Source of the DNA: Rhizaria sp. SCN 62-66
Taxonomy: Eukaryota
Direction: 5' to 3'
NCBI GenBank assembly: GCA_001724265.1
Contig: MEDY01000095.1
Location: forward strand, 1 to 64,000
Length of the DNA: 64,000 bases
Shown here piece after piece: positions 21,401 to 54,686 of this stretch (position 1 is its first letter; every line of letters begins with the position of its first letter). The notes beneath the pieces are model-generated. The model did no database searches. It was not told the origin of the DNA and was given only the letters and a program-made list of their open reading frames with translations. The position numbers and the translations under genes were made by a program.

Positions 21401-21585
21401 GCGGCGGCGGCGAGGTGCCCGTGTGCCGCGCCCGCGTGCACCCGCAGCGCCGCGGCGTCGATCGCGGTCGCAAGCCAGGACCGAAACACCGGCGAGTGCA
21501 CGTCGTCCTTGCCGCCGTTAGCGCCATTGCCGGTGCGGTTGATGTTGCTGTTGGTGTTGGGGGTGAAGCCGCCAGCAGCGTTGTG

Positions 21586-21680
<95 letters not shown>

Positions 21681-22641: not shown

Positions 22642-23420
22642 ATGGAGCGTCTTTACAGCAGGTACGTCCCCGTGGCCTAATTGCATCATGTTTTTATTTG
22701 TAGTCTCTAAAGTCTTTGTCTCCCTCACTTACCCGTCCTTCTTTTTCCCTCCTGTTACCCTTCGTTGCCGGTCACTCGCTTCGCCACTTTGTTTGGCCCT
22801 GCAGTGACCAGATCGCGGTGCCCCCGGAGCTGCCCGCCATCCTCAAGGCCTTCACTAAGGAGGTCATCCGCTACAAGTACGTTCTACTCATCGCTACTCG
22901 GTTTCGTCACTCTTGTTCGCGCTCGAGTCGCTGTCTCTAACTCACACGCTTTCTTGATGATACTCATCTTTGTCCCACTATCTTTGTTCCTGCCTTGCTA
23001 CGTATAGCCCTGCGGATCTTGTCGCCTTCTCCCGCGACTACTTCACCCACCTTGCTGAGGGCCCCGACAGTACGTTTGCCCCCCTGCTTGATGAAAGCGG
23101 CTCCGCTAGAACTCGCATTGTTCTTCATATTTCAATATGTTCACTCTCCAACTATTTGGTGTATCTCGAGACAAATAGCATGTGATGACCTGATGATGGA
23201 CTATATCATTTGAGCATGATTATTTTACTCAACTCACGAGAGATCCAGTCGTTTTATCATAGCACCGCGCCTTTAATCAACTGCAATTCTCACTCCTTCG
23301 TTTCATCCTATCTTGTTCTCTTGTTCCTTGTTGCTTCTGATTTGTTGCGCAGGCCTGCGCGAGTTCCTCGACGTCTACGAGTCGCGCCAGCGTCCCAGCC
23401 CCGACTCGAACGACGGCTAA
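22642..23420 (+). CDS. Small RIIa dimerisation/docking domain protein, radial spoke protein RSP11/ropporin-like, 73 aa, 4 exons
   Basis: Exons 22642-22661, 22805-22876, 23008-23069, 23353-23420; all three donors are GTACGT. Product MERLYSSDQIAVPPELPAILKAFTKEVIRYNPADLVAFSRDYFTHLAEGPDSLREFLDVYESRQRPSPDSNDG, matching the QIxVPxxLxxILKxFTKEVIRxxPxDLxxFSxxYF pattern. Ends in TAA. Confidence 0.88.
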
Positions 23421-32900: not shown

Positions 32901-35900
32901 GCCGTCACTCCGACCCTCGCTCCGCCCCACCGCCGCCGCGACGGCGGCCGCGACCGCCCCCGCCTCTGCCTCTGCCTCGGCGGCCTCGTCCCGCAGCAGC
33001 GGCGCGTAGCAGTGCGGGAACAGCGTCCCCGCCAGCGGGCCCAGCGACGCCAGCACAACTGGCCGGCTCGCGTCCGCGATCGCAGCGGCGCGCGCGGCGG
33101 CCTCGGCGGCCTCAGCCAGTGCGGCGGCCTCGATCGCAGCAGCTTCGGCCTCGGCGGCGGCCAGCGCGGCGGCCTCGGCGGCGGCGGCCTCAGCGGCCGC
33201 GGCGGCGGCGCGGGCGGCGGCGGCGGGCGCGAGGAGCGGCAGCTTCGACAGCAAAGCGACGGTCGCCGCGGTGGCCGCGGCGGCCGTAAGAGACGTGTAT
33301 GAGAGGCGGTCGCCGTAAGCAAAACTGCGACGACGCGCGGGCAGCCCTTGCTGAGCGGCGGCTGTGGTGGCAGCAGCAGCGGCGGAAGCTAGGTGGCGGG
33401 CCAGAGCCAGGAGGTCTTCAGCCAGAGCGGGCGTGACTGCAGCGGCGGTGACCGTGGGCAGCAGAGCGACTGTGAGAAGCACGGAGCCGTCGGGGCTCAC
33501 GGCAAGCGACAGCGCCAAAACATCGGCGTCTGGGTCTGCGACAACAGGAATGTACTGTTGCTGCTGCTGCTGCTGTTGTTGTTGTTGTTGTTGCTACTGC
33601 AGCTGCTTGTTGAGCGAGTGTTGAACCTGCTCCTCCTGCTCGAAGTGTTGTTGCTGTTGCTCTTGCTCGAGATGTTGTTGTTGCTGCTGTGCAGTCATCG
33701 TAAGAGCGAGTTCCAGACTGAGAGGCGTCGTGGGGCGGCCAGTCAAAGCCAGTTCAACAATCACGACATCAGCATCACGATCGCTCTCAGCCACACTGAC
33801 AACATTGGCATCAGCCAAGGCGACAGCAGCAACAGCACTGGTCTCGGTAGCGTCATCGTCGGCCGCAACTACAGTCGCCTGCTCAGTCATAGTTGCAGCC
33901 TCGGCATCAGTGCCAGCCTCAGCCTCAGCGTCGGTCTCAGCGTCCGCGACCGTGGCAGTGCTCGTCGCCGCTGCAGTCTCAGGCGCAGCTAAAGTGTCGG
34001 CCGTGGCCTCAGGCAAAGCAACATGCGTCGCGTCGCCCCTGCTGTGAGTCAGCGGCGTTGCGGCAGTCGGCAGGCTGTTGCGCCGCATACTTAGACTGCC
34101 CCTGCTGCTACGTACACTGTCGTCCTGCTGCTGCAACTGCAAGTCCTCTCGTTGCTGCCCCTGCTCTTGCTCTTGTTCTTGTCCTTGTTGTTGCACTTGC
34201 TTCTGCACATGCTCTTGCCGCTGCTCCTGCTCCTGCTGCTGCTGTGCGATCAACGCCAGCTCCAGCGCAATGGGAGTCGACGGCCGGCCAGTCTGAGTCA
34301 GAGTCACGGCGACAACATCCGCATCAGCAGTGCTGTCACTCGCACTGGCGTGGGCCGTGAGAGCGTCCTGATAAAGCACAGTTGCGCTCTGTTGTTGCAG
34401 TTGCGGCTGCTGCTGTTGCAATTGTTTCTGCAGTTGTTGCAGCAGCTCTTGCTCACGGTTGACACGGTACTGCTGCGTCAGCATTGGCTGCGACAGCGAC
34501 CCAAGCAGCAGCCCCTTAGGCGGCCCCTTAGATGAGACCGCGTCCTGCGCCTCCGGCCCCCTCTGCGCGGCGTACGGCGCAAGAAGCAGCGCCCGGATCG
34601 CCCCCGCGACCGCAGCAGCGGCCTCGCGGCCCGCCCGCGCCGCCGCGCCGTCCTCAGCCGTGGCCGCGGCCTCGGCCTCCGCAGCGGCCCGCGCGCCCGC
34701 CGCCGCCGCCGCTGCGCGCGCTGCGGCCTCGGCCTCTGCCTGGCGCGCTGCCTCCCGCTCTGCGGCCTCCTGCGGCGACGGCGGCGGCGCGGGCAGGTCC
34801 AGCATCAGCCACGGCAACTCCGCAGCGGCGGTCTCGGTGGCCAGCTCGGCCTCGAATTGCGCGCGCGTCAGCCAGCGAGACTCGTGGTCGCTGCGGGCGC
34901 CGGGCTGACGCTTTGCCGCGCTAGAGTCTGCGTCAGCGTCCGCATCTGCGAAGGAATCAGAGTCGCTAGGGTCGTCGCCGTCGGGGCCCGCCTCGGTGGA
35001 GGGCTCGCCGGTGAACTCGCACAGGCCCGAACGTGGGTGGCGCCACGTCGTGACGCCGTCGCAGCGCCGGTAGTAGAAGTAGCGACCAAACTCCTCACTA
35101 TCCTCATCCTCATCATCGTCCTCGTCCTCGTTCTCATCTACGTCTTCATCGTCAGGGTCATTGTGGTGGCCTGACTGGGCTCTGGCGGCCCTAGCAGCCC
35201 GCGCCTCTGCTCTGGCCTCCGCCCTGGCCTCGGCGGCCGAGGCGGGCGCCCAGAGCCGCACCCAGGCGAACGGCGGCACCGTCCACGCCGTCACCATCGC
35301 AACGCCAGAGCCAGAGCCGAAGCCGCCGGTAAGCTCAGTCTCGTTGCCGGGCTCGAGCCCAGCGCCGCTCTCGGACATAGGGCCAGCGGGCATGGAACCC
35401 GTGGGGATGGGGCTGATGGGGATGAAGCCGGCGGGAAGGGGGCCGGCGGGGACGCAGACGGAGCCGGCGCGCGACCGCAGCGGGCGGCCATGGGCAGCAG
35501 TGGCGGCGGCGCCGGGGTAGTCCGGGATGAGGGCCTGGCTGTGGCTGTGGGCCATCAGACGGCTGCGGCTACTGCTGTGCGCGGCGGTGTGCAAGCTGGG
35601 GGACAGTGGCGGCGACTGCGGCGGCGGGGCGAGCGATCTGAAGCCGCGCTTCGACCGGCGTGACAGCGACTGGGACCGTGAGCGCGATTGTGACCGAGAC
35701 CGAGACCGTGAGCGTGACCGAGAGCGGCGTGACTGCGCGTCATAGCCTTGTTCGTTTTGAGTGTCGGCGTTGTCGTCATTGTTGTTGATGGTGTTGTCGT
35801 CGTTCGTGTCCCGGTCGCTGAGCAGGCTGTGGTTGTACCGGTCGCGCGGGGTGGCAAACCCGACACTGTCGAACTGGCCAAACAAGGCAGACTGGCCTCC

Positions 35901-36630
35901 ACCGCCGCCGCCGTGCGTCGCGTCCACGTTAACATCCGCGCTCGTATCGTCTTGGGCATCGTGGTTGTGACTGAAGCTTGCTGTGGCGGCTGCGGGAGCG
36001 CTGAAGTACACCAATCCTGTCTCTGGATGCGGGTGCGCGGTCCAGATCTCCACCAGACGGCGCCTTGTGCGGCTAAGTACCCCCTTAGACGGGCCGCCGG
36101 GGAGGAGGCCCTTGAGCTCGGCCAAGTAGTACGAGCGGGGGTGCCTCTCTTCGGGATGTGGCAACTGCTGATGTTGTTGCTGCTGCTGTTGCTGTTCCTG
36201 AGTGCTCGCATCACCGCTAGTGTGAGCGTTGGGGTTGTTATTGCTGTCTTGCTGCTGCTGCTGCTGCTGCTGACCGATAGCAGGCAGTGTAAGTGCCCCG
36301 GATCTAAGTACCTCGTTCATCGTCTGCTCGACAATGGCCGCGGCCCACAGCCGGTAGAAGGGCTCACTGCCCGCCGCGTAGCCCGCAGAGCCGGCCCCGC
36401 GCACCGCCACAGCCACCGACGCAGCAGCAGCCGCAGCAGACTCGGCAGCAGAGTCGGCAGCAGACTCGGCAGTCGCGCCAGTCGGAGCTGTCGGTGCGGC
36501 GTGGCCATGACCGTCGTCGTCGTAGTCGTTGTCGGTATCGTTATAAGGGCGGGTTTCCGGGTCTGTGCTGCTGTTGGTCGCAGTGACTGGGACAGCTGCG
36601 GCGGTCTCGCTCGCTGCAACGGGGGGACCG

Positions 36631-36671
<41 letters not shown>

Positions 36672-37184
36672 CGGTAGCTGGGACTGCAGGTGCAGCTGCG
36701 ACGGCGACTGCGACTGCGATTGCGCAGTGGCGCTCGAGACTGAGGGCGACAAAGGGTGATGACGCGGAGCCAGATTGGACGGCGGCGGCGCAGGCACATG
36801 CAACTGCTGCTGCTGCTGCTGATGCGACGGCTGCTGCGGCGGCATAGGGACAGGTCCAAGCGCGAACTCCGCCGCGGCGGCCGCTGCAGCCTCTGCCGAG
36901 ACCACCACGGCCGAGGCGGATGGCGACGACGCGTACGCCGAGGCAGAGGCGGTGGACGACACCGAGCGCGGCGAGAAGGCGATCATATGCGCGCGCTGAG
37001 CGAACTTCTGCGCGCGCGGGGATGAGCCCGGCACGTCGGCCGCCAAGCCCGCCGCGGGGGAGTGTGGCGCGACCGTGACGGCCAGGGTGGCAGGCGCAGG
37101 CGCGGGCGCGGGGGGAGGCGACGGCCGCAGAGCTGTCAGAGCCGTTACGGGGCCCGCGTGGGCGCCCGGGTCGGCAGCGTCCAT
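23929..37184 (-). CDS. Giant (~4290 aa) low-complexity/coiled-coil protein with WW-like motifs; one in-frame TAG at 33594-33596
   Basis: Exons 37184-29943, 29838-29083, 28929-28154, 28027-23929; all donors GTACGT and phases consistent. WW-like VPPFAW...GRYFYYRRCDGVTTWRHP and WTAHPHPETGLVYF. Ends in TAA. The 5' end is uncertain (possible extra exon near 37603-37463). Confidence 0.72.
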
Positions 37185-37735
37185 GCCAGAGTGCTTCGGC
37201 GAATAACGCGCGCAGACAGCCCTGATATGGCAATTGATACCCGTTAGCGGAGTGAAATTAGCACACGCCTCGATCTAAGCTGTGAGGTATGCTGGTTGAA
37301 GCTTTTGGTGACTGTGAGCGAGGCAGTGTGAAAGGGACCGGACAAAGAGCGGTGGTAACCAAAGTAAACATTCGGGTTAGCGCATATAATTGAAAAATAA
37401 GTACATTCTGCAACAATAATATCTGATTATTTTGAAATGCACACCAACAACGGTCTATGTACATCGTGAGAGACCGCCAAAGACATGCTCAATTTGAGGC
37501 GGCCGCCGCCACAAGCCACGCTGGTCAACCGCTCGAGTCCGGCATTGCCCGCCGCGTGGGGCTTGAGGGCATTTTGTTCGAGTTGAATATGTCGTTTTCT
37601 CATCGTAACATTGTGAAATAGCGTGGGTATACATTTTGCCGACACTCTTTTGCGCAACGCTAGAAACCTACTATTCCGCAATCTTACATTTATCGCCCTC
37701 TGTCGCGCTTTCAGCTTGATCGATCCGCGCCTTAG

Positions 37736-39438
37736 ATGGACACGAACTTCCAAGAGTGGGAGGAACACTCAGACGTCTAGCAAGACGCCGAACTAACTCA
37801 AGACACGCTGTATTCGCGCCAGTTTGTGGTCGTCAATGAACCGTACGTGTCTTAGTTGTTTATTTAGTGCTTCAAACTTGTTTATCTGATGAATTCCGCG
37901 CCGGATGCATTTCCCCTCCCTTCCCCCTCTCTTCCCCGATCCCGACCGCGCTCACATCCACTCATATTCACCCTTTTCCCCCGACATTTCTCTTTGTTCA
38001 TGTTTGCATTTCCTTGCTCTCGCCGCTCCAGACGCCCCGGGCGTCACAGCGACAGCGACGACGACAGCGACAGTGACGGCAGCGGCTGTCACAGCGGCAT
38101 CCACAACTTCGCCGCCGCCGATGCCGCCAGCGTCAAGAGCAGCTCATCAACGGGCGCCGGCGGGGCCAACAGCGCGGTGCTGACGCTGCGCTTTGGCCCC
38201 GTGGCTACCGCTACTGGTGCTGCTGCCGCGCCCGCTGCTGCCGCTGCGGCCGCGGCCCAGCCGTTGACAGTGACCGTGGGCTCCACAGGCTTCCGCACAG
38301 TCACTGCTACTGCTCTCACAGCTCCCACTATGCCTACGACTGCGGCTGCGGACTCTGCTGCCGACCGCGCGGGTGCGAGCGCTGCTGCGGGTGGGGCTCC
38401 ATTCAAGCTCACTCTGGGTCCGGCGCTGCCGCCCACGGTCACTCTGCCCCACGGCAGCAGCGGCAACAGCAACCATGCGCACCGCAACAACGACTATGAC
38501 AACGACAACAACACTGACAGCGACAACGTAGCGAACGCCAGCACTGGCACTGGCTCCTCCGAGAACAGCACTGCCGCGAACAATGCTAACACGGCAACGA
38601 ACAGCCGCAAGCGCGCGCGTGTGCCTGACTCCCACTTAGACGCCTCTATGGAGCACTTAGACAGCGCGGACACTGAGCACTTAAACGACAGCGACAACAC
38701 AAACACCAACAGCAAGAACGGGCGCGGCAAACACGCGCGCAAGGCTCCCACCGCTGCAGCAGCAACGACTTCAGCGGCAACAGCTGATGTGGCTCTGATC
38801 CCGAGCAGCCGCAGCAGCCGCAACAGCAACAGCAACAGCAACAGCACTAACACCAGCGCCAACGCCAGCGACAACGACGACGAAAACGACGACGGTGATG
38901 ATGACAACAATGATGGCGACGATGGTAGTCGCGGCCAGACTAGCAGCGCCAAAGCCCGCGGCCGCGGTGCCAAGGCCGTGCCCACCGCAGCGCAGACCAA
39001 GAGCAAGAGCAAAGCTAAGACCCCGGCCAAGGCGGCCAAGACCAAAGCGGCGGGCGACAGCGGCAGCGGCGGCGGCAGCACCCGGGGCTCGCCGGCCTTC
39101 ACTGGTGCTGCCTTAATCGGCGCCGGCACCAGCCCCGCCGCGCTCCCGATGGCGATGCAAATGCAGCAGATGCCGCAGATGGCTCTGCCGATGATGATGA
39201 CCGTGCCCCTGCACATGAACACCATGGGTGCCGTGGGCAGCATGGCCAATATGGGAATGATGATGCCGATGGCGCTGGCGATGCCGGTGGGCACCGCTCC
39301 TGGGGGCACTGGCAGCGCCAGTGTCGGGGTCGGTGTCGGTGTAGGCGGCGGCGGTGGGAACAATGCCGCTGCGCTTAGCAAGATGCAGCAGCAGTTGCAG
39401 CTGCAGCACATGCAGCTACAACAGCAAATGATGTTGTT

Positions 39439-39478
<40 letters not shown>

Positions 39479-39652
39479 AAGCAAAGCAAGGGCAAGAAGG
39501 ACTCTGTCGCCGCCGCCGGCCAGTCTAAGTCTGGCTCGAAGAAGGCTTCTGCCGCGTCCAATGCGACTGATGCTACTGCGACGGAGGCGGAGGCAGGCAC
39601 GGTGACGGCTGTTGCGGCGGCCAAGACTGCTCGCAAGCGCAACATTAGTTAA
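37736..39652 (+). CDS. Low-complexity hypothetical protein (Met/Gln/Lys-rich C-terminus), 575 aa; in-frame TAG at 37778-37780
   Basis: Exon 1 37736-37842 (MDTNFQEWEEHSDV*QDAELTQDTLYSRQFVVVNEP), phase-2 intron 37843-38031 GTACGT...TCCAG, exon 2 38032-39652 in the frame of ORF 37889..39652. Ends in TAA. Confidence 0.7.
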
Positions 39653-40514
39653 GCCGGGCTTGAATATAGCAAGCCGCGTCTGACCCTGTGCCTGCCCCGT
39701 GTTGATTTCGCTCTCGTCCATGCCTTCGCTGCTTTGCTGTTTCCTCATTCGCTACTCTTCGTGTTGATTTGCCGCCCCTGCTGGTGTATTGTCTTTTGCC
39801 GACTTGTTGTGTTGCTGTGTGTCCCATCACTCAGCGTTTGTGACAATTGCATTCCCAGACACACTCGCAAGTGCGCGTTTCCTCGCTCTGTCTTACGCTC
39901 GCACTGACCACGCAGTACAGCGCCGTGCTACTACTGAACGTTTGCCGCAATTACTGTGACGACGTTCACATTCATCACGGTGTAATGCTGCACCTAACTG
40001 CGCTGTAAATGCACTGCCCTATGGAGTACGAAGCATCGGTCAACTACTGCTCTGTTTTACTCTGCTTGGCATGGCATTTGAATGTCTAACTAATGATTGG
40101 TTTGCTTTAAATAGTTTGTTACTATCCAGTTTCCACTGTTTACCTATCCATTGTGTCGTTACCTAATGTTTTTAACACCTCCTACAAATGTATTTCGCGT
40201 GTTAAAAACTATGACTAGTTTAGAGGTATCCTCTGTTGTTTTCTTTTCTACTTATGTGACTTGTTTACCGACTCAGTCGCAATATACATCACTCTTCCAT
40301 ACGCATATGTTAAATTTTAATCCTATGCACTAAATACAAGTTAATAAACGCGACCATGTTTTATTTTTCCTAGTTGTTATGTCATTGCATTGAATCGATT
40401 TTAAAGTTAAACGTATGAGGGTTTACACGTTAGTGTCTCACATGGACGCAGCATCACCTCGCTCACAGCGGTGCGTGTTTACAGGCCCTCATTTGCATCA
40501 TGCCTTAGGGTTGC

Positions 40515-43500
40515 TCAGCGAGCGCACGAGTACCCTTCGCTGGCGCCGGGCCCGGCCCAGTGCCCCCAGTCGCCGTGTAGCGCCTGCAGACTGCGGTGCG
40601 AGACGGGGGGGCGGATATCGATGCGTGTGACGCCGCGCCGCAGCGGGTCTGGGACCGACACGGCCGCGCTGCCTGCTGAGCTCTCCATGCTTGTGCTTCC
40701 ATTTGTAGAAATGTTGTCGTTCTCGCTGTTGCGATCAGCGGGGTTGATATTGGTTGGGAAAACAACATCTTCGGTGGCGTTATGAGAACCAAACTCCTTG
40801 GCCTCAAACTCAAGCCGCTGGCTCAACTTATCTCCGCCATAAAATCCTACTGCAAACTCGCGTCGCTGCGGTCTATACACCGGCAGCGCTGCCGCTGACT
40901 TGAAGTGCAGCTCTTCGTCCTCTTGGCTCTCATCCCCATCACCATCATCATCATCATCGCTGTCGCTGTCATCGTCGCTGACGGTCGCAGAACTTGCACC
41001 TCGACTGCTATTGCTCACGCCACCCGTCTCAGTGGGGCTATTTTTAACACTGAGATCAAGCGCAAATCCACTGTTCCTGAGCTCCGGCCTTGCCGCCGCG
41101 GCCGCCAGCGCCCGCAGCGTGCGTCCGCTGACCGGCGCGACTGTCTCCGCCGCCCACTGCAGCAGCTGCCAGGGCGACAGTGCCCCCGCGGCGGCGGCGT
41201 TCAGCTCGCCGCGGCGCCACAGCCGCGTCTGCTCCGTCGTCTGCCGCCAGCCCTCGTCAAAGCGCGCCTGAAGCGAAGTTAGGCCGCGGCTTAGGCGAGC
41301 GGTGGACTCGCGCCACGCAGCAGCGAATACCGACGGCGGCTGCTGCGCCAGGAACTCAAATGCACTCAATAAGAACGCGTTGGCACGGGAATAGTATAGT
41401 GCAGGGTTGTGTTCCTCTTGAGCCCCCTGATTGCGTCAAATCAATGCCCAATAAAAGGGTTAACGGATTTTAGGCGATAAAAATATTGATCGCCGGAAAA
41501 AAAGAGAAATGTTGTCAGCGCGAGTAAATTTACAAATTTTAAAGTATAGTGAACAAATACATCTATAATTAAATTTCGCAAAGTATTCAAGTATATAAAA
41601 TAAAATCAAATCTTTCCACCAATAATTACTGCTATTAAATAACATATGAGCGCAATATCTTCTGTTTTAGTTTGGGGTCACGGACCTGAATGACAATGGC
41701 GAACGTCTTCGGCCCTCCGGCAGCCCCAGTGGCACAAATCACGACATAACCGAGCTGTTGCTCCGTACGCAGCGTATGGAAACATCTCTCCTTGACAATA
41801 TCAAGGAAGATCTCTGTCATGACATGTCTCCCCAGTGCGCTGTTGTACACAGTCTCACTCACAGCCGCGCGTTGCTGTTGTTCACGGTCACTCAAACTGC
41901 CTTGCGCGGCCGCCTGAGCCTTGGCAAGCGCGACAGCAGCAGTGGCCTCCACGCTGCCACTGCCCGACGCCGGGACGACCTCCTCATCGTCCAGACCGAG
42001 ACTGCGGCTTAACATATCGTCCTCGCGCGGCGTCAGCGGTGGCGCCGTTTGCAGTGACAGCAGCATGGCCGAGTTGGGGTCCTCAACAATGTAGGTTGCA
42101 GCGCGGTAACGCGTGTGGTACCCGCGGGCCTGCGTTCTCACAGTTACTGGTACGGACGCCGGCCCGTTCACCGTAGTCGCAAGCGTGTTCATGTTGCGGT
42201 GAGCGATCGCAGCAAGGTCACTTGAAAGGGTGGTTTCACCATTATCGTCACTTGAAACATCACTATCAGTTTCCGTGTCTGTTTCGACGTTGTTGTTAAT
42301 GTTCTCATTGTTTCTGCTAAAAGTGGTGTTGATCGCAACCCATATTGGCTTTTCAGGGATCACGGTCAGTAGCGCAGTCTCGGCGGGCCGCTTCAGGCGC
42401 TGCGGGTGCGGCATCTGTGCGCACTGCATGTATGTTAAGCCGCCACCCGTGCTCGAAGTCAGGCCGCCAAGCTGTAGCGGTGGTCCTGCTAACAGGGCAA
42501 TGACGGCAGCAGCGTGCCGCTGTGCCTTTTCGCTTTCGCTCTCGTCATCGTTGTCATCCTCAGTGTCGCCAATACTATCACTGCTCATGTTAGTGTTTGC
42601 AGCGCGAGTTGAGCCCGCATCACTTCCTGTGTTTGGAGCACGAGTAGTAGCACTATGGCTAGCAGGGGTACTTGCGCTTGTTGCAGGCGCGTTTACAGTT
42701 GCGGCGGCGCTTGCGGCGGAGTTCGCGATGAGAAACCACTCCGGCCCCGCGCCGCCGGCCACTTGCAGCGCGCGGCTTAACTTCTCGCCGTACCCGCGCG
42801 CCTCGGCCACGGTTGCCGCGCCGTGCACGTAGACCTCCACAAGCGCGCCCGCGGCGGCCACGGCGCGCGCCAGGCGGGCGACATCGGCGGCTGTCGGCGG
42901 GGAGCTGAAGGGGCCGCGCCCCGCGGGCGGAGGTGAGTCAGTCGCAGCGGCAGTAGCGTCAACAGCGCCACCGCTTGTGGTGGAGTTAGTTTTTACTGGC
43001 TTGAGCCGCAGGCCTGCCCAGCGCAGCGTACCGAGCGCTTCGTCTGTAGGCGCAACGAAAGACAGCAGTTCACGCTTGCTCTGCAGGTCCAGCGAGCCCT
43101 CGACTTCGCTGGCGACGACGGTGAGCTCGAGAAACGGCATGCCGTAAACGCGGGTGTGGATGCTGTCCACAGTCGCTGCTAGCGCAGAAGGGAAGGCAAT
43201 CGAGCACGCGGACTGAGGTGAAATGCACACTGTGCTCACATCGTTTACACTGTCACTGTTGCCGTCGCTGGCTATGTGCGTGCGATTAGTGCCAGAGTGA
43301 GTTGATGTAGGGATGCGCTGCAGACCTAACAGAGCAATAAGCCGTGCAAGTTGACTGGTGAAGATAGGCGCAGTGTCTGCAAACGCTGTGTAGGATACAG
43401 TCAAGCCGCGACGAGAGGACTGTGCAGTAAGTTTTGCGCTCGCTAGCTCGCCATACGCAGTAAGAACAGAGCCCATCTCCTCGATCTAAACGAAATAATA

Positions 43501-46500
43501 CAACATAACATTATTTCAGAACTAAATAAATTCTAACTTCAATCATCACATGTCAAATACGTTATTTCTCAAAGATTACCTCATTAGAGTTGACAATTCA
43601 CGTCATATGTTACACGTACCATTGCGGCCCACAGCATGCTCATTGCCTTGACTGCGACACTGTCCATCGCAACACGCCACACCTTGCCTTTGGCATCAGT
43701 AACCGGGATTTCCATTGGAAAAATGATCTCAACGCCGACAAACGCGCGCGGAATGACCTCACCCGTGTCCTGGCGCAGCCACACGAGTGCTCGGCTGTCG
43801 TTGCGCACAACGAGCGGCGCCCCGCCGCACTGCGGAGAGCTGGCGCTCACGCCGCTGGGTTCTGCAGCGGTGCCCGTGACGGCAGGGCTCGCGTTGCTGT
43901 CAGCGCTATCCGCGCTCATTGTGTTAGCGTCGTGAGTGCCGTTATGTGTGGTAATTCTTTCACAAGGCGGGACTACGAATGACTGAGGAATCAGTGGGTT
44001 CAACGGCGGCAAGTTGGCTTGGAAGCAGGGGACAGCCTGTTGTTTCCTACGGTTGTTGCTGTTACCCTCACAGGGAAAAGGGTTGATTCCAGACCGGGCC
44101 TTTACCCACACTTGTGGAGCGTCAGGTAAGGGGTACTTAGACTTGGCCTCAGGCACTGTGAAGACGCGCACATCGACGCTGTAGTATTGCTCTGTGACAA
44201 GCCTTCCGTCCCCAACAATCTCAGCATCATGGCTGCCACCGTATATAGCGCTATCCGCACTGCGGTTGCCAGTGTCACTGCTATTTCCGCTGCTGCGGAC
44301 ATTCTCCGTTCTGTTCCCGTTCCCCCACAGCATCGTCGGCGCCGTCACCATCACGAGCGCCGTCTCCGCGCGCACTGCGGCCAGCACCGCCGCGATTGCC
44401 CGCGGCGCGTACACCCGCCGCATCGGCGGCGACAGCGCGTCCGCGGGCGTCACAAAGGGCCGATTCAAGTGGCTCGCGCGACGGCGCACGAAGTCAGACG
44501 CGGTGGCCTGGCGGTCCGAAAAGGCGAAGGTGAGGTACTGGCTCGCGGAGAGGTCGCGGAAGCGGGCGCGGGACAGGCCCTGGGGCACGCTAATTACAGA
44601 CAAGTAGTCTGAAGACAAAATAAAATGTGTTGAAAACAAAGCATAGGACGACATAAACTTGTGAGAGTCATCTGAATTAAATACCCATAAAACTTAGCAC
44701 TGATGCTGATGTGACGATACGCGTGAGCTTGTTACTGAACCTACACATGAGTACGGCGACAACGTCCCGCACTTTCTCAGCGCCGGCCTCGGTCAGCGTG
44801 ACCTGCACCACGATTGCGGCTGCGGCAGCCATCTCGCGCATAGGCTCGGCCTCAAGCTTGTTGGCCCAGCCGCGCGATTTAAGATAGGCCGCCGCGCCGC
44901 CTGCGTGCGGGTGCGCAACCTGGTGGCACACGAACTCAAGCGGCTCTGTTCTCACAAACGCGTCCTGCGACGGTAATGCCCTGTGTGTCAATAAAACAAA
45001 GTAGCAAGAGAGAGATCAATGCAATTAGGCATTGGATGTGTGAACGTTGAACCAACAAATGTTCTTAATATTAAAAGCTGATGCGTACCAAAAGAGCGTG
45101 ACGGAGCGTTCTCCACCAACAGATGCAATTGACATAAGCGGAAAGCCTGTACCGTTGTGCAACACTCCAGAAAATGGGTGCGAAAAGCCCCGTGGACGTG
45201 GCCTAACTTCCCGAGGAGGCAACTTCTCGTTATTTTCAGTGTCGGCTTCTGCAGCGGTTGCGGATGCAGCAGTATTGAATGTGTGCGCAGCGTTTGTAGG
45301 GTACGTGGCAGAGTTTGCGGTGAAATGAGCCGCGGCATGCGCAGTATCAGGCTCGTATTCACCGCGCGTGACAAGCGCCGCTAGTGCCGACGGAGACAAC
45401 AGCGGCAGCGCCAGAGCTGTTGGCTCTTTGTCAGTCTCTGCGTCGATAAATCTAGAATCAGAACGAGAGTTGACATGACCGGGTAGTGTCGCTGGCATAG
45501 CAACTCCACTAGTAGCGCCATTGATACTGCTTGAATGGTCAGCGTTACGATGCCCAATTTCCGAACTATTGTTGCTGTTGATAGAGAAGTAGTCGTAGTC
45601 TGTAGCATCTGTTCCCAAGGCCCCGGCCATGTTGGCCCTGCCACTCACAAGCGCTAGCAACGTTGGATACCTAATCGCAGCAGCCTCAGTCGCATTACCC
45701 GCGCTCGCAGCGTCAAAATTCCCACCCGCGCTGGGTTGCAGCGGCAGCGGGCTAGCGGTCGTGTTGAGCGACGGCTTACTTGTAGGCACATCTGAGAACA
45801 ACTCCACAACAAGCCTTTCTGCACTATCCAATGGCTCTGTAGTGAGCACCGACAGCGCCATCCTCTCTGCTGTGTAGTGCGCGCGGTGGAATTCCCTCAG
45901 GTCCACAGCTGTCCACGGGCGTTGCAGCGTCTCGCGCGTGCCTGTCCCAAAGTGGTGCATTGGGTGCGCTTTGTCTGCGACAAACCGCAGTGCCTGCCAC
46001 TGGCGCCATGAGTCGGAGAGCAGGTTCTTCTGGTGCTCGGCGTCGACGGCAGCGCGCTCTTTGTCCACCGCGGTGGGAGACAGCAGCGGTGCGACGAGAA
46101 ACTGAGAGAAGATGTCGAGAGACGCCGGCAGCGCGGCGGGGGAAATTTCGAAAAAGTAGTTTGTTTCCTCATCCGATGTGAACGCGTTGTAACTGCCACC
46201 TAAACAATAGACATCCAGTCAGCGAGGAAGCAATGCTGGTGAGTTGCGACTTGAACAAAATAAACATAGGTCAAGAAAAAAAGTAAATGTGCGTTTGACG
46301 AACCATGTTCTGACAGAAATGAAGAGAATTTGTTGATTTCTGGGTATTTTTTGCTGCCCATGAAGAGCATATGCTCTAGAAAGTGCGCCAGCCCCGGCGA
46401 GCGCGGGTAATCTGCATTGCTCCCCACGGCCATGCTCAGTGCCGCGGCCGCGCGCGGGGCCGCCGGGTCGCTTACCAGCAGAACCTTTAAGTTGTTTCGC

Positions 46501-48218
46501 AGCACTACGTAGCGGTGCGTGCGCGGGGACTTGTTGGGCGCAACCACAGCGTCGCCAATCGTCATCAGCGCCGCGACCTGGGGCTGCGTCAGGGGCTGGC
46601 CTGTGTTGGCGTCAGCGTGGGCCAAGAGTTTCTCGGTCCAGGCCAGCGCAGCGGGGCGGGGCACAGCGCGGACCATCTATGCGCCGCCGGGGAAAGAGAG
46701 AAAGTCGGACGATATCGCACCGACGCGGCTGGCTGCGCCGTCACTGCTGCTGCTCAATAAGTCTGCCTCGGTCCCCGCTGCTCCAGAACCTGAGCCCACG
46801 GGTAGCCCTGTGCCACTACTGATGCCGCCACTGCCACTGCTGTTGCTCGTGCCAAGCGTAACAAAGAGGAAGATCGCGAGCAAAACGATGACAAGCAGCG
46901 CCGACAGCGCGAGAATGCGCGCCGTTGTGGTGTTCTGACAGGGCGACAGGCGCCAACACCAGCGCCGCCAGGGCTCCGCCGCCGCGCCCGCCGCGGCGGC
47001 GCTGGCCCTGCGCCGGACGCCGCTGCCGCTGCTGTCTTCAACGCCGACCGCGAACACCGCGGGCGAGGGCTCCGGGCGGTGGCGGCGCGGGGGCAGCGGG
47101 GGCGCCAGCCGCTGGCGCTGCTGCTGCTGCTGCTGCTGTTGCAGCTGTGGCTGCTGCTGCAAGGCAGGCATCGGGGGAAGCTGCGACTGCGCTTGGTAGC
47201 TGTGGCTGTCAATCGCCGCGCCGCCGTCGGAGCCCTCGAGCGTATGTCTGCTGATTCCGGTGTAAGTGCCTCCGTTGCCAGTGTAAGTGCCAGCATAAGT
47301 GGACGGCACATCGCTCTCGCCGCTGGCAGTGTTGGGCAGTGCACTGTACGCGCCCGCGCCGCCGCCGCCAAAGCCGAGGCCGAGGCCAATGCTGCTTAGA
47401 CGCGACTGCAGCAGCGAGGGCTGGCGCACCGCTGTGGGCACGCCGCCGCTCGCAGTGTTGGCAGGATCAGCGCTGTCACTCGCGGTTGTCAGTCCCTCGG
47501 TGACGTTGATGTCGGAGGCGCCGCTGTCGGATGGGCCCAGCACTGGCGGCGGCAGCGGGGGTCGCGCGGAGCTGGAGCGGTGCCCGTGGGCGCTGCTGTA
47601 ACTGCGACTCTGGCTGGACGGGGCAGAGGGAATGCTGTGTCCGTTTTCGTTTGTAATTTTGATGTTGTTGTTGGAGCGACGGAGGCCCGATGCTGATGTC
47701 AGGGGAGAATCATATGCGATGCCGCTGTCGCCGTGCCCGCCAGCCGCCCCTGCGGCGCTGTGTTGCGCATGTGAAGTGACGACACTAGGGGGACGAACGC
47801 GGTATTTAGCTGGGTTAACAGCTGTTGCTGTTGCCGTTACGCCCGCATCAGTCGTAGCGGTGGACTCACGGGGCTCAAGGACACTAAACAAAAGCATGAA
47901 ATAAAAAAACCAGAGGAAAAAGATAAGCCCAGCATTGATAGGTAATGTAGATCGAGATAAGTCTATGATGTAGACGTACGTGGGGTTGATGGTGACCGCA
48001 TGGAGCGCGTTTTCTTTTTCATCTGCAGCTGCAGCTGGTGAGACGAGAGCGGGAGGATACACGGGACCTTTGTCTCTGACCTCGCTATTTGTCGGCTTTG
48101 CGGGAGGAGGAGTACTTGGGTCCGATAACGGACTGCCGCGGGTATGCTTGTGGTCGTCAGCGTTGCGCGGCGGCGGGCTCTACTTGCTCGGGACAGAAGG
48201 CTTGTCGTGACGACTCAT
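40515..48218 (-). CDS. M16A zinc metalloprotease (insulinase/pitrilysin/nardilysin family) with N-terminal extension and transmembrane helix, ~2288 aa; in-frame TAGs at 48180-48182 and 46677-46679
   Basis: Exons 48218-47980, 47883-46304, 46199-45089, 44980-44745, 44608-43620, 43485-41686, 41426-40515. Motifs LRNNLKVLLVSDP, PGLAHFLEHMLFMGSKKYP (HxxEH), H|GGSYNAFTSDEETNYFF, KERAAVDAEHQKNL, HPMHHFGTG, LKSRGWAN, FHTLRTEQQLGYVV. Ends in TGA. Confidence 0.9.
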
Positions 48219-48624
48219 GGCTTCACTAGCGTTCGCCTTGCACTTCGCGTTTCTAGACTATACACAGGCTGTTAAAGAGTGTTGATACAACAATTGATAA
48301 GTGTGAAACTTAAACCGTGTAGTTTTTATTTATACTTTGATTTCAGTGTGAATTCATCCGAGGTAAACAGTAGTTTTTTAGTCGAGGCGTCGATATGATT
48401 TATTGTTGAACACATGCTGATGCCCACGGTCACTTCGTGTACTTCAAGTTAAAAATCGCAAGTTAAAAGTTATTTCAAGTTGTATTCAACGATTATTTTT
48501 AAAATTGTTGCCCATATTTTTGATTTCCTTCATTACATTAGTTCAATTTGAACTTTTCAAGTCATCCTCTAAGAATAGACGTTTTTGCACAGTCACACAA
48601 ACGTGGGCGGTCTACATTTAATTC

Positions 48625-51600
48625 TCACATGTACGCCCTTTGGTCCTCCTTAACATCGTTGTTACTCGGCTTCTGTCCGTGAGCAACGACCTCGCCCATC
48701 GGCAGCTTCACCGGCCGAATCACCTTGCCCCCACGGTTGAGGTTGGCGTTTGCGCCCTTGTTGGCGTCGCGCAGCACATCGTCAAGCGCCTCTTCATCCT
48801 TGTTGTCGGTCTCGCTTGCAGTTGCGGCGGCGAGTGCAGCGGCGTCTTGCTGCGCCAGAGCTAGCGCGGCCTCCGCAGAGCTAACAGTCGCGCTCGCGCT
48901 CGTCTTGATGCCAGCAGCACTGCTCGCTTGCGGGTGGCTACGAGCGCGACTGTGCGTGCTTGCGCTAGCGCTCGCGCGGGCTTCAGTCTGGCGCTGCGCC
49001 CACGCGCGCGCCTGCCCCATTGCACTCGCACTGCGTTGCTCCTCTTGCTGCTGCTGTTGCTGCTGCTGTTGTTGCTGCAGTCTCTGCTGCAGTTGTTGCC
49101 GCTGCTGCAGTCTCTGCTGCTGTTGTTGCTGCTGCAGTCTCTGCTGCTGTTGCTACTGCTGTTGTTGCTGTTGCTGTTGCTGCTGTTGCTGATGTTGCTG
49201 CTGCTGCAGCAGTCTCTGCTGCAGCTGTTGTTGCTGCAGCTGTTGTTGCTGCTGTTGCTGTTGCTGCAGCTTCTGTTGGTGGTGCCCGCGGCCACTGCTG
49301 CGACTCTGGCTGCGCTCGCGCTCGTTCTCATCCACCGGCACAGTCACGGGCACAGGGACAACCGACGCAGGCATTGCAACGCCGTCGCGCGCCGCCGCGG
49401 CCGACGCAGTGCGGACGAGATCAGCGCCCACTGGCAGCGTCTGCCGCAGCCGCTCGCGCAGCACGCCGCCCAGTCCCTCGCTGTTGCCCACACCGGCGTC
49501 TGCACTCACGCTGCCGCGCTTAACGCCACTGGTGTTAATGGGCGTGGACATTACTGTCCCAAGCTGATAGCCGCAGCCGCTGCTGGCTTCCACCGCACCG
49601 GCGCTTCCCTTGCCAGCGGCGGTGGCTGCGGCGCGTGCGTAGCTGCTCGAAGGCCTGGGCGCGCGCCGGAGCTGCTTGCGCACTTCGACAAGCGCGTGCG
49701 CAAGGCCGGCGCGGGTGCGAAAGTCAAGCCGCGTGTCAACGACGCCGGCGCGGGCGAGTCGCCTGCGGAACAGCAGCGCGCGCGCCGTCACAGCGGCTGC
49801 AGCGGCTGCCGCTGCCTCAGGACTCGCACCGCCCGCGGTCACAGCAGCAGCGGCAGCGGCGGGCGACAGAGGGCCCCGCAGTCGCAGAGACTTGCTGCTG
49901 GTGTTGACGGTCAAGTTGCTTGGACTTGAGCCTGTGAACTCGCCGATGCGCTTCTTGAGCCAGTGGACAAAGCCTTTGGACTTCTTCGGACCCGCTGGAG
50001 CTTCGGCAACAGTAGCAGTAGCAACTGCAGGGCTACTGGCCGTTAAGCTGCTACTCTCGCCACCTTGGCCCGGCGACTGCGGCTGTGGGGTGTCACCACT
50101 GGGCACAATGTTACCACCAGCGCCGACACCACTGATCATGATTGAGCTCACGGTCACGTCGTTCTCCTCTTCATCCTCTTCCTGTGAAGACTTCTGCTGA
50201 CGCTCGCGCTCACGGATATCCTTTGCCTTCTCACTCACAGCTGCAGCAGCGTTAACGCCGCCAAGGCGCCGGGCGCGTGCCGCATCAATGCTCGCGCGCA
50301 CGTTAGGCGGCACCGCGCAGCGCGCGAGCGGGGCCCGCAGTTTGCGCGGCGGCGCGGGCGGCCTTAGCGCGCGGCGACCCGCAGCCAGCACAGCTGCAAA
50401 GCCGGGGCGGCGGCGCGGGTCGTCTTGCGGACCGCTGAGCAGCACCAGAGAGGTTAGCCGCTCGCGCAGCGGCAGGCGCTGGCGCAGATAGCGCGCGCGG
50501 GCTGGTAACGGCACGTGGCGCAGGCGCGCGCGCGCCTGGGCCATAACGCGCGGACTAAAGCGGCGCGGGCCGCCAAGGCGGTAGTCACTGATGACGCGGC
50601 CGCTCTGCAGTGTGTACGCACCCTGCGACGCGCGCGACTGCAGCAGCTTAGATCGCTCGCTGACACTCATCCCCGTGGTGTTTACGCTAGAACTGGCGCT
50701 CGCGCTGGAACTATCGACAGTCGTGGCTCTGCCGCTAGCGCTGTCCTTGTCTGCGTTTGTGGCAGTGGGCCTGAGACTCTTGCGCGCGTTGCGGAGCGCG
50801 AGCCCGAACGTCCGTATGTTAAGCCGCCGCGGGTCTGTGCGCGGCGCAGATGTGAGTGCGATCACAGTGGGCACAGAGCGCTCAAGAATGGGTCGACGCC
50901 ACGGCATGTTGAGCGGTTGCTGCTGGGGCCGGAAGAAGGCAGCGTCAGCTGTGCTCTTGCTTTGTGTGTCAGCGCTGGAGCCTGCTCTTGACGCCCTTGC
51001 GCTGGTAGCAGGCGCCGGCGACAAATTGAGCGCATTGCGCACCTTGTCCATCAAGCCAGCACCACCGGCACTGCTGCTTGCAGTGCTGCCGCTGCTGCTG
51101 ACAACGTCCTTACCATTGCCGCCCGCTTGAATGTTGTTCATGTTAAGGAACGCGGGGTAGACCGTGCGCAGCGAGTTCTTGACCGCGCGCAGTGACTGCG
51201 CAAACCCGACCCGCATGCGCGGATCAATCGGGCCGAGACCAAGCCGCGGCCGCGCCGGCACAAAGCCTGTCGGCAGCGCAAAAACGGTGCCCGCAAGAGA
51301 GCGGCGGACGTGCAGAGGGGCCGGGCGCCGCAACTTTGCGCGCGTCACGGCGAGCGAGGCCAGGAAGCCTACGGGGTCAGAACGGCGCGGATCTTGCGGC
51401 AGGATAGGCAGGTCCCAGCGGTCCTAAGCAAAAGTGTACAAACATTTAAAAAACATCAATTATTAGGAGGGAAACATAAATCGACATGAAATGACGTTGC
51501 CAAAAAGTATTGACATCATATGTTAACGTACGTGCGCATGCCTCACTAAGTGAGCCTCCTTACTCTTGGACACGCCAATAAACAGCTTCTTCACAGCCTC

Positions 51601-54600
51601 ACTCAGCCCACCACTGCCACGGTCGGCCACGCCACTGCCTACGACGGAGCCCGCGACCGCAGCGCTGCTGTGGTAAGAACACTCCTCCGGACTCACGTGC
51701 CGCAGCGCGGCTTTGCCCCGCTCCAGCGCACGGCGGAACTCGCACACGTTGCTGCGCATGTCACCCTCGCCCTGCCGGCTCAACGCCAGCGAGGTGGCAA
51801 ACCCGCGCAGCCAGAGCGGCGCCTGACCCGGCGTGCGCACGTGCCGCAGCGCCGCCCGCACGCGACGCAGCTCCTTTGCAAAGCGTCCAGCCGCGAGCCG
51901 ATCGTTGCCTGCTCCGGCGACGCGCGGGTCGCGCGGCCGCGGGTGCTTGAGCCCGTCAGCAAGGCGGTATCGCACTTCGCCGCGCGTGGGCGTGTCGCTG
52001 CGGCCGCGGCGCGCCTCGCGCTCAGAGTCTGCCAGTCCCCAGCGCGCTGCCTGTGAGATGGCGGCCGACACAAGCTCGCTCCGCAACGCGGGGCCGTTGA
52101 AGTAGCGACAGTCGAACAGCGATACTGGGCGCAGACGCGCGTAACCACGCCTCAGAGCGACCTCAAACGCGGACGGAAAGCAGCGCGGGTCCGGGCAGCG
52201 CGCGCGCAGCGTTGAGCAGCAGTCAGGACGGGTCTGGCGCGGCAGCACGGGACGCAGGAGCTTCTTGGCGGCAATCAGCGCCGCCTGAAACGACGCCGGG
52301 TGAGACCGCAGCGGGCACGCGCGCATACTGCTGCGCTGTGACTTAGTCATGCCGCTCCCACTAATGCTGCTGCTATCTGGGGCCAATACCTTAGGCTGTT
52401 GTGAGGCGTCGTCGGCAGCGCGCAGGGCGGCCAGTGCGCCGCTTGCATTACGGCACTCGATCTCCTTGTTTGTCAGGCCCTGCGCTAGAGCGGCTTCGCG
52501 TTCCGTGCGCGCGCGTGCGCAGAGCGCCATCCGCTGCCCGTGGCGCGCCGCGCGCGCGGCCAGCTCGCGCACGTATTCGCGCTCCTCGGCCAGACTGCAT
52601 CCAATGCTCCCGAGCGCGGCACCGGGGCCCGCCGCGGCTACGGCGTCCTCGGCCTCGCTCTCGCTCGCGCTCGCGCTGTCGCAAGACTCGTCGTCGGAGT
52701 GGCCATGCGCGGGCGAGCGCCCGTGGGCGGCCGTGCGGCGGTTTGCGTGCCACAGCGCGCGCCAGCGCTGGCGCAGCTGCCGACGCTGAGCGCGCGCTGC
52801 GGCGGCCACGCCCACGGGCTGAGCCGCGGCAGCGGCGGAAGTTATGGGGGCCGACTGCGCGCGGGCTAGGGCGGTGTCACAGCGCAGCAACGCGGCAAGT
52901 GCGGCGGCCTCTAGCTCAGTAGAGCTGCCGGCGGCCCCTGTCGCGTTAGCGGAGTCGATGATTGGAGTCGGGAGGTCAGGACTCGCGTTGCCAACGCCAG
53001 TGCTTGAGTCACTGCTGTCAACGTGCACCGCGGTTTTCGTATTGTTGTAGATGGGCAACTGGCCGAGACTAGACCGCTTCAGAAACGCATCGATGTTGCC
53101 TGCGCTGCTCTTGCTCTCGCTTCTACTTTGGCCGTGTCTGCGCCCAGCCGCGTTCTTGGCGGGCGTGGACAGCGCAGAGAACCGGCGCAGTGCGTGGCAG
53201 TCGTCCAGCGCCGCAAAAAAGGCCGCGGGCGTGCGCAGGACAACTGCGAGTTCGGCGGCCGCGGCGGCGTCGGCGGCAGCGCGCGGTGACTTGAGCGCCG
53301 CCACTGCGCGTGCTTGTAGAGGCATGCGCTATGTGCTACTCTGCGGCCCTTGCTTGTCTTGCCCCTGCTGCGCACAGTAGGTTGAGAGCAGAGAGTCAGG
53401 ACTTGCAGCGCTCGCGTGCGTGGCGGCTGTGGCTGCCGTGGCTGAGAGGCGACGAGTGGGCATGATCGGCGAGTGGCGCGCGTTAATCGTGGTGCTAGCA
53501 TGGGGGTCACCGCGGACATCTTGGCCACTTGTGTAAGGCGCACTTGCGTGTTGCGACGCCGATAATGGCGTCAGCACCAGCGGCCCTCTTTTGTTTGAGC
53601 GCTCACCAGACCCCGAGGCAATGTTGATGGTGCTGTCCGGCGGAAGTGACACCGTCAGCATGTCGTTCGTGCGAGGAACACCTTGGTTATCGCTAGCGCT
53701 GCCACTTACGCTGGTAAATCCGCCGCTAGTAACGCGTTGCGCAGCCGGGCGAGCCATCGCGTTGTTGTTGTTTGTGAGTACCGAGTCAGTGTGAGCGCCG
53801 GGCAGCGAGGGCGACAGACGCTGCGCACGTGCGCGCACACGCGCCGCCGCAACGGCAGCGGCATCAGACGCGCGCATATCACTCTCGTCTTCCTCCTCGC
53901 CGTCGCTGTCGTGGTAGCCGCGCGGCACGCTCGGCGCGATGTTCATCGCGCTGGTGCTATCAGCGCCGGGGATGCCGCCGCGAGCGTCAGTCTTGTTGTT
54001 CTCAGTGCTGTCATCGACCTCGTGCTTAGCATCGTCCTTGCCCTGCGGCGCGGGCTTGCTGCTGCCCGCGCCGGTGTCCTTTGTTGCGTCACCGGTTGTG
54101 TCACGACGCAGCATCATCACCGTATACTCGCGGACCGGCCGGCGCGCGCGCTCAGTGGGGGTCTCGGCCAGCGCACGTAGCACCGCAGTGGAGTCACGTT
54201 GCCGCGCGCGCGCTGAGGGCGGCGGCAGAGGCAACGTTGGGAACGCATGCATACCAGCGGCAGCTGTGGGAGTTGCTGTAGGTGTTGCAGCAGTTGCGAA
54301 CGAGCTGGCAGCGGGGGTAAGCGGAATTCGAGTGGAAGTGGAGGGGGCGACACGGGGTGTGCTTGAGGTACCGTGTGCGGGCTTGTGCTTTGCGCTGTTA
54401 ACAGCAGCAGGAGTAAGTTGCACAGCGGCAGTAGCCGGGGGCTCCGTTGCGCTGCAACTAGAATCCGAAACAAGACCAGGGCAAGTGGTGATGCAGTGTG
54501 AGACGGAGGAAGCATCAGGAGAAGCAATGATCGATTGAATGAGCAAACGTACGGGCGGTTTCGATTGCGGGCGTTATGAGGCCGGCTTAAAAACGTAGAC

Positions 54601-54686
54601 GCAAGAGGAAGACGGTCGTTTTCCTGCACAAGCGCGTCAAGAGAAGACTGAAACTCGCGCTCTTGCGCCGAGATAGAGTTGCCCAT
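48625..54686 (-). CDS. Putatively N-myristoylated protein with ~10 WH2-like repeats and a poly-Gln tract, ~1952 aa; in-frame TAGs at 53329-53331 and 49153-49155
   Basis: Exons 54686-54553 (MGNSISAQERE...), 54457-51532, 51423-48625; both donors GTACGT with matching phases. ORFs 53329..54546 and 51523..53325 are in the same frame separated only by TAG, as are 49153..51348 and 48625..49020. Ends in TGA. Confidence 0.75.
49044..49270 (-). repeat. Compound CAG/CAA poly-Gln tract with recurring CAGCAGAGACTGCAG (QQRLQ) units
   Basis: Seen directly; contains the in-frame TAG at 49153-49155. Confidence 0.9.

Follow-up and report, generated by a model that had tools for sequence, protein, structure and literature searches.

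Nuclear genetic codes in which UAG alone has become a sense codon have been described in a single fornicate, a single rhizarian and a handful of ciliate lineages, and UAG is common in all of them as they are described in the papers cited here. Outside ciliates, the cases are Iotanema spirale, where UAG stands for glutamine (Gln), and the sainouroid rhizarian exLh, where it stands for leucine (Leu) (Panek et al. 2017, PMC5304391). In exLh, 384 in-frame UAG codons were counted in 71 genes, with Leu at 82 of 86 hyperconserved positions, and the genes end in UAA (56) or UGA (15) and never in UAG (PMC5304391). In the ciliate cases, UAG makes up 18.5–31.8% of Gln codons or 6.5–10% of Leu codons, 78–91% of the genes carry it, and suppressor transfer RNAs (tRNAs) were found (McGowan et al. 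2024, PMC11687900); in the oligohymenophorean ciliate PL0344, UAA and UAG each specify an amino acid of their own (McGowan et al. 2023, PMC10553269). The present analysis concerns 64 kilobases (kb) of DNA assigned to Rhizaria sp. SCN 62-66 (positions 1 to 64,000 of the forward strand of contig MEDY01000095.1, assembly GCA_001724265.1; hereafter the window), in which a few genes carry TAG codons in frame.

The window resembles I. spirale and exLh, as these are described, in that UAG occurs in frame while UAA and UGA end genes (here 5 TAA, 6 TGA and no TAG). It also resembles the cases of McGowan et al. (2024), for which metagenomic assemblies were mined, in that UAG has parted from UAA, which still serves as a stop (PMC11687900). 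The meanings of UAG and UAA are likewise uncoupled in PL0344, but both codons are sense there, whereas TAA ends 5 of the 11 genes of the window. The differences from the published descriptions are of several kinds: unlike in exLh, there are only four to six TAGs, in three to five of the 11 genes, and none lies at a conserved position; unlike in I. spirale and exLh, the genome is rich in guanine plus cytosine (GC; 0.55–0.76) and two of the TAGs abut an ATG; and unlike in the ciliates of McGowan et al. (2024), the contig, which does not resemble ciliate DNA, is long and GC-rich, has spliceosomal introns with GTACG donors, and uses TAG for as little as 0.5% of its Gln-type codons (PMC11687900). 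No organism of this kind was found in the literature searched on UAG reassignment and on sludge protists, the supplementary lists of which could hold cases.

Weighing the evidence set out below, we lean towards the view that this organism translates UAG, a state that is probably recent or incomplete. This would make it a further independent UAG-only case, in a GC-rich non-ciliate, set apart by a UAG that is rare and non-randomly placed. It could show an early or incomplete reassignment, with UAG gone from gene ends and barely entered into coding sequence, and would thereby bear on codon capture versus the ambiguous intermediate, the two models in question.

In-frame TAGs within long coding frames

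The evidence base is this one window with its 11 genes. Genes were delimited with a simple gene finder of our own, which combines codon log-odds, trained on seven TAG-free open reading frames (ORFs) of the same window, with a donor pattern and an intron composition term; every junction broken by the gene finder was also checked by direct reading. Six genes end in TGA (at 6244, 6481, 8249, 14930, 40515 and 48625), five in TAA (at 15478, 23418, 23929 (or 23465), 39650 and 55772) and none in TAG, which reproduces the count given in an earlier note made from the letters of this DNA. That note had also stated that no exon needs an in-frame TAA or TGA, and this holds: the 26 conservative exon segments, amounting to 17,447 codons, contain four in-frame TAGs, no TAA and no TGA. 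The TGA and TAA codons found at ORF ends within genes fall in introns with GTACG donors. Within the window, UAA and UGA are kept as terminators and are absent in frame, which is the pattern of a UAG-only reassignment.

Six TAGs had been reported to interrupt otherwise continuous frames. All six were found again, with the same coordinates, strands and peptide contexts, and for four of them (33594, 46677, 49153 and 53329, in three of the 11 genes; hereafter the robust sites) the description stands: long coding stretches in the same frame lie on both sides, and frame 0 scores +32 to +471 bits without any other stop over 124–1217 codons. The other five frames at these sites score −9 to −861 bits and contain 1–55 stops. 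The remaining two TAGs, 48180 and 37778, are weak: each lies in a short putative 5' exon, with an ATG 12 and 14 codons before it, respectively, and can equally be the stop of a small upstream ORF. At the four sites not followed at once by an ATG, the next in-frame ATG is 45–376 codons away, or does not occur before the next stop. Note that a first, threshold-strict scan of codon scores passed one TAG and no TAA or TGA, its cut-off being too high to be informative.

We rejected the possibility that the TAGs are located inside introns. Indeed, the GC content within 60 nucleotides (nt) of the TAGs is 0.51–0.69, against 0.28–0.46 in six introns, and a search for a GTACG donor in the 400 nt upstream of each robust TAG was negative at all four sites; the TAGs are therefore placed outside introns. 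When TAG was modelled as a sense codon, the gene-finder score of the minus strand increased by 72 bits, while the standard-code model splits one of the TAG-bearing genes (G9) into three genes and another (G8) into two, and adds a 228-nt GC-rich intron in a third (G6). The corresponding controls on the same strand gave −33 bits for TAA and +46 bits for TGA, and are imperfect because a codon set as sense cannot end genes and because in-frame introns fuse TGA runs. Finally, downstream of the TAGs the differences between strains bear the mark of coding constraint: those in ORFs comprise 9 synonymous and 9 non-synonymous changes and one 3-nt in-frame insertion, and non-coding DNA is far denser in changes (4 in ~870 nt and 5 in ~260 nt).

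The contigs of four other sequencing runs were compared with the window between 33500 and 53400, the RNA evidence being in the form of assembled contigs, not raw reads. Four of the six TAGs proved unchanged, each in contigs of two to three other runs, which come from other studies and years: 46677 (X3 record 4, X4 record 14), 48180 (X3 record 5, X4 record 15, X5 record 20), 53329 (X3 record 8, X5 record 23) and 37778 (X3 record 1, X4 record 10). Relative to the window, X4 and X5 have changes at ~0.2% of positions and hence represent other strains. The contigs of other runs confirm these four TAGs and leave 33594 and 49153 uncovered. Errors of assembly or sequencing, or loss of the TAGs from messenger RNA (mRNA) through removal or editing, are in our view a very unlikely explanation. 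Such an explanation can draw on the position of 33594 and 49153 in CAG/CAA repeats, where other-run contigs break, and on the status of the poly-A RNA contig of X9 over 46677: this contig was discarded as proof that the TAG is present in mature mRNA since it runs 20 nt into intron 46210–46302 and may be DNA or unspliced RNA. It has to contend, though, with the identity of four sites in two to three other runs, strains ~0.2% divergent included; with spliced, cDNA-like X5 data that retain TAG 53329; with a spliced transcript of another strain, P0143, that stops at the TAG 53329 codon; and with the sequence around 33594, where unique sequence directly abuts the TAG and the repeat after it extends over only 39 nt (the tract from the TAG to unique sequence being 42 nt long).

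The strongest case for translation through TAG is provided by 33594–33596 (minus strand; context KQLQ*QQQQ), in a polyglutamine (poly-Q) linker of G6. This gene, as delimited by our gene finder (23929–37184, minus strand, TAA end), has three or four short AT-rich introns and encodes a low-complexity protein of ~4300 amino acids (aa) in which no Pfam family was recognized. The TAG divides same-frame ORFs of 1226 and 1237 aa, its flanks score +314 and +471 bits without a stop, and ~3100 intact codons over three to four introns lie 3' of it; the ORF on that side recurs identically on four contigs (P0137). The next in-frame ATG is found only 376 codons past the TAG, and the intervening 375 codons score +128 bits and contain no stop, so that a downstream restart cannot explain this site. 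In addition, a 30-aa repeat unit that is present twice upstream of the TAG recurs 19 residues downstream of it (repeat u2 vs u3 across the TAG: z = 4.6, with none of 500 shuffles as good). Translation through TAG is the simplest account of 33594. The alternative under the standard code, an intron at 33800–33573, was rejected, as its GC content is 0.53 and it scores as coding. The alignment of the internal repeats of G6 at the DNA level pairs the TAG with GGG and is too divergent to name the amino acid. Note also that, in contigs from each of X3, X4 and X5, the sequence is joined across 235 nt at 33666–33902, within the repeat-unit region of G6; as the join is also present in DNA runs, it probably reflects a repeat-copy variant or a collapsed assembly rather than splicing.

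A second line of evidence comes from G9 (48625–54686, minus strand, TGA end; introns 54458–54552 and 51423–51531), which would encode a protein of ~1950 aa if both its TAGs are read through, again without a Pfam family. The first of these TAGs, 53329–53331 (minus strand; context QSST*RMPL), is followed by CGC and ATG (53323–53325). The 373 codons upstream of it score +89.5 bits and the 599 codons downstream +82 bits, without a stop on either side. The X5 contig that carries this TAG unchanged is cDNA-like (record 23, depth 38), and another contig of the same run (record 22) splices 51531 to 51422 in frame (GT..AG, minus strand, 108 nt) at a depth of 34, as compared to 38 over 53329. Furthermore, in P0143, which comes from a 1789-nt contig of another strain, exon 1 (MGNSISAQ, 54686–54553) is spliced to exon 2, and the ORF ends at TAG 53329; having its own start and being spliced, it shows the ORF 5' of TAG 53329 to be genuine coding sequence that is expressed and spliced. 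G9 is one transcription unit, and translation through TAG is the simplest account of a spliced mRNA in which 53329 parts two long ORFs of the same frame. The second TAG of this gene, 49153–49155 (minus strand; context QQQQ*QQQQRLQ), lies in a long poly-Q tract; the 175 codons downstream of it score +43 bits without a stop, the next ATG is 45 codons away, and the contigs of the other runs break in the repeat. As to the protein itself, it begins with MGNSIS, which we take to be a myristoylation-type start, and a pattern match finds in it at least nine copies of a motif, F..AL......LR.V, that is WH2-like by eye. A WH2-like repeat upstream of TAG 53329 was considered as a sign of one protein and left aside, the match being degenerate.

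If UAG is translated as we favour, cytoplasmic ribosomes would read it as sense and not as a dedicated stop, with UAA and UGA terminating. This would call for a tRNA with a CUA anticodon, the simplest source of which would be tRNA-Gln(CUG), one anticodon change away, and for an eRF1 with weakened recognition of UAG. A tRNA scan of the 64-kb window and an Rfam search of the window each gave no match. Gln is our most economical guess for the residue inserted, because two of the TAGs are embedded in uninterrupted stretches of Gln and one transition suffices to turn CAG into TAG; the residue may instead be Leu or another one, as no TAG of the window aligns with a conserved residue. Decoding itself, as opposed to split genes, and its genome-wide behaviour are both inferred here from the window.

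Rarity of TAG and the two TAG–ATG junctions

One window cannot prove that TAG is translated, and two of the sites look like stop–start junctions. A series of observations, which we bring together here, weighs against translation of UAG. First, the specificity for TAG is not significant, since the codons one step from TAG outnumber those one step from the other stops: 2266 codons can give TAG, as compared to 733 for TAA and 473 for TGA (transitions only: 689, 192 and 117), and CAG (597) is three times as frequent as CAA (192) and 24 times as frequent as CGA (25). As a consequence, random nonsense mutations would yield TAG 65–69% of the time, and finding TAG only has p = 0.18–0.23 for four sites and 0.08–0.11 for six. 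The argument in the earlier note that random mutation should also have produced TAA and TGA is thus weaker than it was made to appear. Second, the absence of TAG from the 11 gene ends gives only p = 0.02–0.17 for an assumed TAG share among terminators of 30–15%, a range based on stop-codon use in other eukaryotes, and the count of TAG ends becomes 2 out of 13 genes if the ORFs 5' of 46677 and 53329 are separate genes. Third, TAG is rare in frame, at 0.023% of codons and 4 out of 793 Gln-type codons (0.5%). The six frames together hold 723 TAG triplets, so that ~98 in-frame TAGs would be expected from the all-frame average if the codon were free; with four observed, TAG is still strongly avoided. 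This density is ~40 times below that of the UAG-reassigned lineages described in PMC11687900. Fourth, no TAG lies within any Pfam domain, in agreement with the earlier statement that none falls at a conserved domain position, and in three homolog searches no homolog spanned a TAG or aligned a conserved residue with one; these searches gave only the split ORFs of the window itself and generic M16 and aldolase relatives. Fifth, the two TAGs in CAG/CAA poly-Q repeats are not covered by the listed contigs of other runs (stretches without cover: 33500–33608 and 49035–49278).

The last observations concern the ATGs. An ATG occurs one codon after 46677 and two codons after 53329. As Met makes up 1.18% of codons, the probability of at least two such sites is 0.003 among four sites and 0.008 among six. 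A neutral sense codon should not adjoin Met.

The first of these junctions lies in G8 (40515–48218, minus strand, TGA end), a multi-exon M16A insulinase-like gene with the Pfam domains Peptidase_M16, M16_C and M16_M, whose exons were mapped by tblastn with homologs, intron 46210–46302 being read directly; a start at 48218 requires that both TAG 48180 and TAG 46677 are translated. TAG 46677–46679 (minus strand; context PGGA*MVRA), directly followed by ATG 46674–46676, sits between an N-terminal low-complexity ORF bearing transmembrane segments and the M16 insulinase domain; the 401 codons upstream score +96.8 bits without a stop and the downstream stretch +32 bits. The N-termini of M16 homologs project to within ~43 codons of ATG 46676 in five cases out of five, and to within ~10 codons in three of the five, which indicates that the insulinase is complete without the upstream ORF. 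A stable hairpin at 46655–46688 (minus strand) encloses the TAG–ATG junction (120-nt window, z = −2.97; none of 200 shuffles as good).

Regarding the junction in G9, an exhaustive HMMER search with exon 2 (1.84 billion representatives) returned the two halves of G9 itself (P0138 and P0140) and P0141, the only ortholog found, which is encoded on a 28.8-kb metagenome contig and shows an identity of 47% across 268 aa and of 77% across a block of 43 aa. P0141 opens with MHAAAARMGS..., its first residue preceding by ~7 positions the conserved 'RM' found after TAG 53329. To judge from this one sequence, the ORF boundary at the TAG may be common to a relative; the place where P0141 starts could mean that the start or the TAG is conserved, or that the relative has an intron. 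At its other end, P0141 terminates in ...HAHVR, like the G9 frame when read into the conserved GTACGT intron, so that the position and donor of this intron appear to be conserved in the relative. In sum, the claim that UAG is read as an amino acid is partly supported, by 33594 and by the spliced G9 mRNA, and is called into question by the ATG after two TAGs and by the start of P0141. A plain, mature sense codon must take the ATG adjacency, the P0141 start and the M16 N-termini as coincidence. Given four TAGs in 17,447 codons and an ATG right after two of them, we think of the decoding as young or incomplete rather than as a mature reassignment.

These junctions can also be explained under the standard code. 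TAG 46677 and TAG 53329 would then be true stops at stop–start junctions: the upstream protein ends, and the next one begins at the ATG and is produced by termination–reinitiation or from an internal transcript start. The poly-Q TAGs would have arisen recently by nonsense mutation or truncation, and small upstream ORFs would end at 48180 and 37778. We regard this explanation as unlikely, even though much of what is described above speaks for it: a stop lies near the next start at two of the six sites (TAG|ATG at 46677 and TAG CGC ATG at 53329), at most two codons away (p = 0.003–0.008); P0141 starts at the position equivalent to 53329, the N-termini of M16 homologs coincide with ATG 46676, and the hairpin spans the 46677 junction. 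Likewise, 48180 and 37778 are only 12 and 14 codons past an ATG, nonsense mutations would mostly give TAG because no codon one step from a stop is commoner than CAG, and a prokaryote-style gene caller placed ORF starts at the two ATGs on 5 and 7 contigs. On the other hand, both ORF pairs are in the same frame, which has a chance of 1 in 9 if they are unrelated, and restart after upstream ORFs of 373–461 codons would need to be efficient; to our knowledge, these are far longer than the ORFs that permit reinitiation. Nor does AT-rich, promoter-like DNA precede the internal ATGs, and the other gene pairs of the window are 234–1086 nt apart. Above all, 33594 is left unexplained, with its 375 codons before any ATG and a repeat unit straddling the TAG, and two independent fixed nonsense mutations would be needed in 11 genes. 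Stop–start junctions are familiar from viruses such as caliciviruses and influenza B, in the form of UAAUG-type overlaps in which the downstream ORF usually lies in another frame. The 0–3 nt between stop and start at 46677 and 53329 are reminiscent of these, but the ORFs here are cellular, 373–1530 codons long and in the same frame. Were the two TAGs true stops, long same-frame ORF pairs coupled at TAG–ATG junctions would be unusual for a eukaryote.

The favoured reading, translation of UAG, has a variant in which UAG is caught in the middle of reassignment, both decoded and still partly terminating. We hold this variant to be improbable. Selection would then clear UAG from gene ends (0 of 11) and from nearly all coding positions (4 of 17,447 codons remaining). 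UAG would persist before an internal AUG that allows restart, where failure is cheap (46677 and 53329, an arrangement possibly conserved in the relative), and in poly-Q tracts, where the CAG-to-TAG pressure is highest (33594 and 49153).

We consider it unlikely, somewhat more so than stop–start junctions, that the code is otherwise standard, with TAG ending genes elsewhere, and that these TAGs are sites of programmed or leaky readthrough giving short and long isoforms. At four of the six sites the TAG is followed by C, the base after which eukaryotic stop codons are most leaky, and at three of the six the codon that comes next is CAA. The very low number of in-frame TAGs is also what would be expected if TAG mostly terminates. 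However, the full CARYYA motif is matched at none of the six sites, and the sites do not share a downstream fold (five z values between −0.2 and −1.1, only one of six below −2). Moreover, none of the 11 genes of the window ends in TAG, and we know of no readthrough density that comes anywhere near four sites in three of 11 genes.

The weak TAGs and the remainder of the window

The first of the two weak TAGs, 48180–48182 (minus strand; context VPSK*SPPP), is located in the putative first exon of G8, 12 codons past ATG 48218; the 79 codons of this exon reach a score of just +13.7 bits. In the X4 strain, a G>A change at 48284 makes a TAA out of a CAA in the open frame that precedes the start proposed for G8 (48218, minus strand), which fits a 5' leader and not coding sequence in that stretch. 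The second, 37778–37780 (plus strand; context HSDV*QDAE), lies 14 codons past ATG 37736. It falls in what is presumed to be the first exon of G7; the 35 codons of this exon score +12.5 bits, and it ends at a consensus GTACGT donor at 37843. Under the standard code, G7 has an alternative start at 38000.

The GC content of the window, 0.55–0.76 in 4-kb bins, marks it as GC-rich, and long low-complexity ORFs enriched in Ala, Ser, Gln and Asn extend across it. The same DNA was seen in bioreactor, wastewater and activated-sludge runs of several studies from 2015 to 2025, which points to an uncultured eukaryote of such systems as the host. This recurrence over about ten years also means that DNA, RNA and possibly enrichment material should be obtainable.

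Pfam names only three genes in the window: the M16 insulinase (G8), a threonine aldolase and an anoctamin. The closest non-self threonine aldolases are 59–60% identical and are followed by animal sequences at ~53%; a scan of metagenome contigs with the threonine aldolase P0019 (59% identical) gave 80 loci with identities of at most 51%, none of which was used. The anoctamin (TMEM16) gene, at 15478–21855 on the minus strand, has at least five introns and a low-complexity N-terminal region of ~1000 aa. A small gene at 22642–23420 is RIIa-domain-like by eye.

The introns are spliceosomal, short (~95–150 nt) and AT-rich (GC 0.28–0.46 in the six measured), with GTACG-type donors; a literature search for this donor motif as a clue to the lineage gave nothing useful. 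The GTACG donor is near-invariant in these AT-rich introns of GC-rich genes, as exemplified by 51423–51531, 46210–46302, 29839–29942 and 8531–8656.

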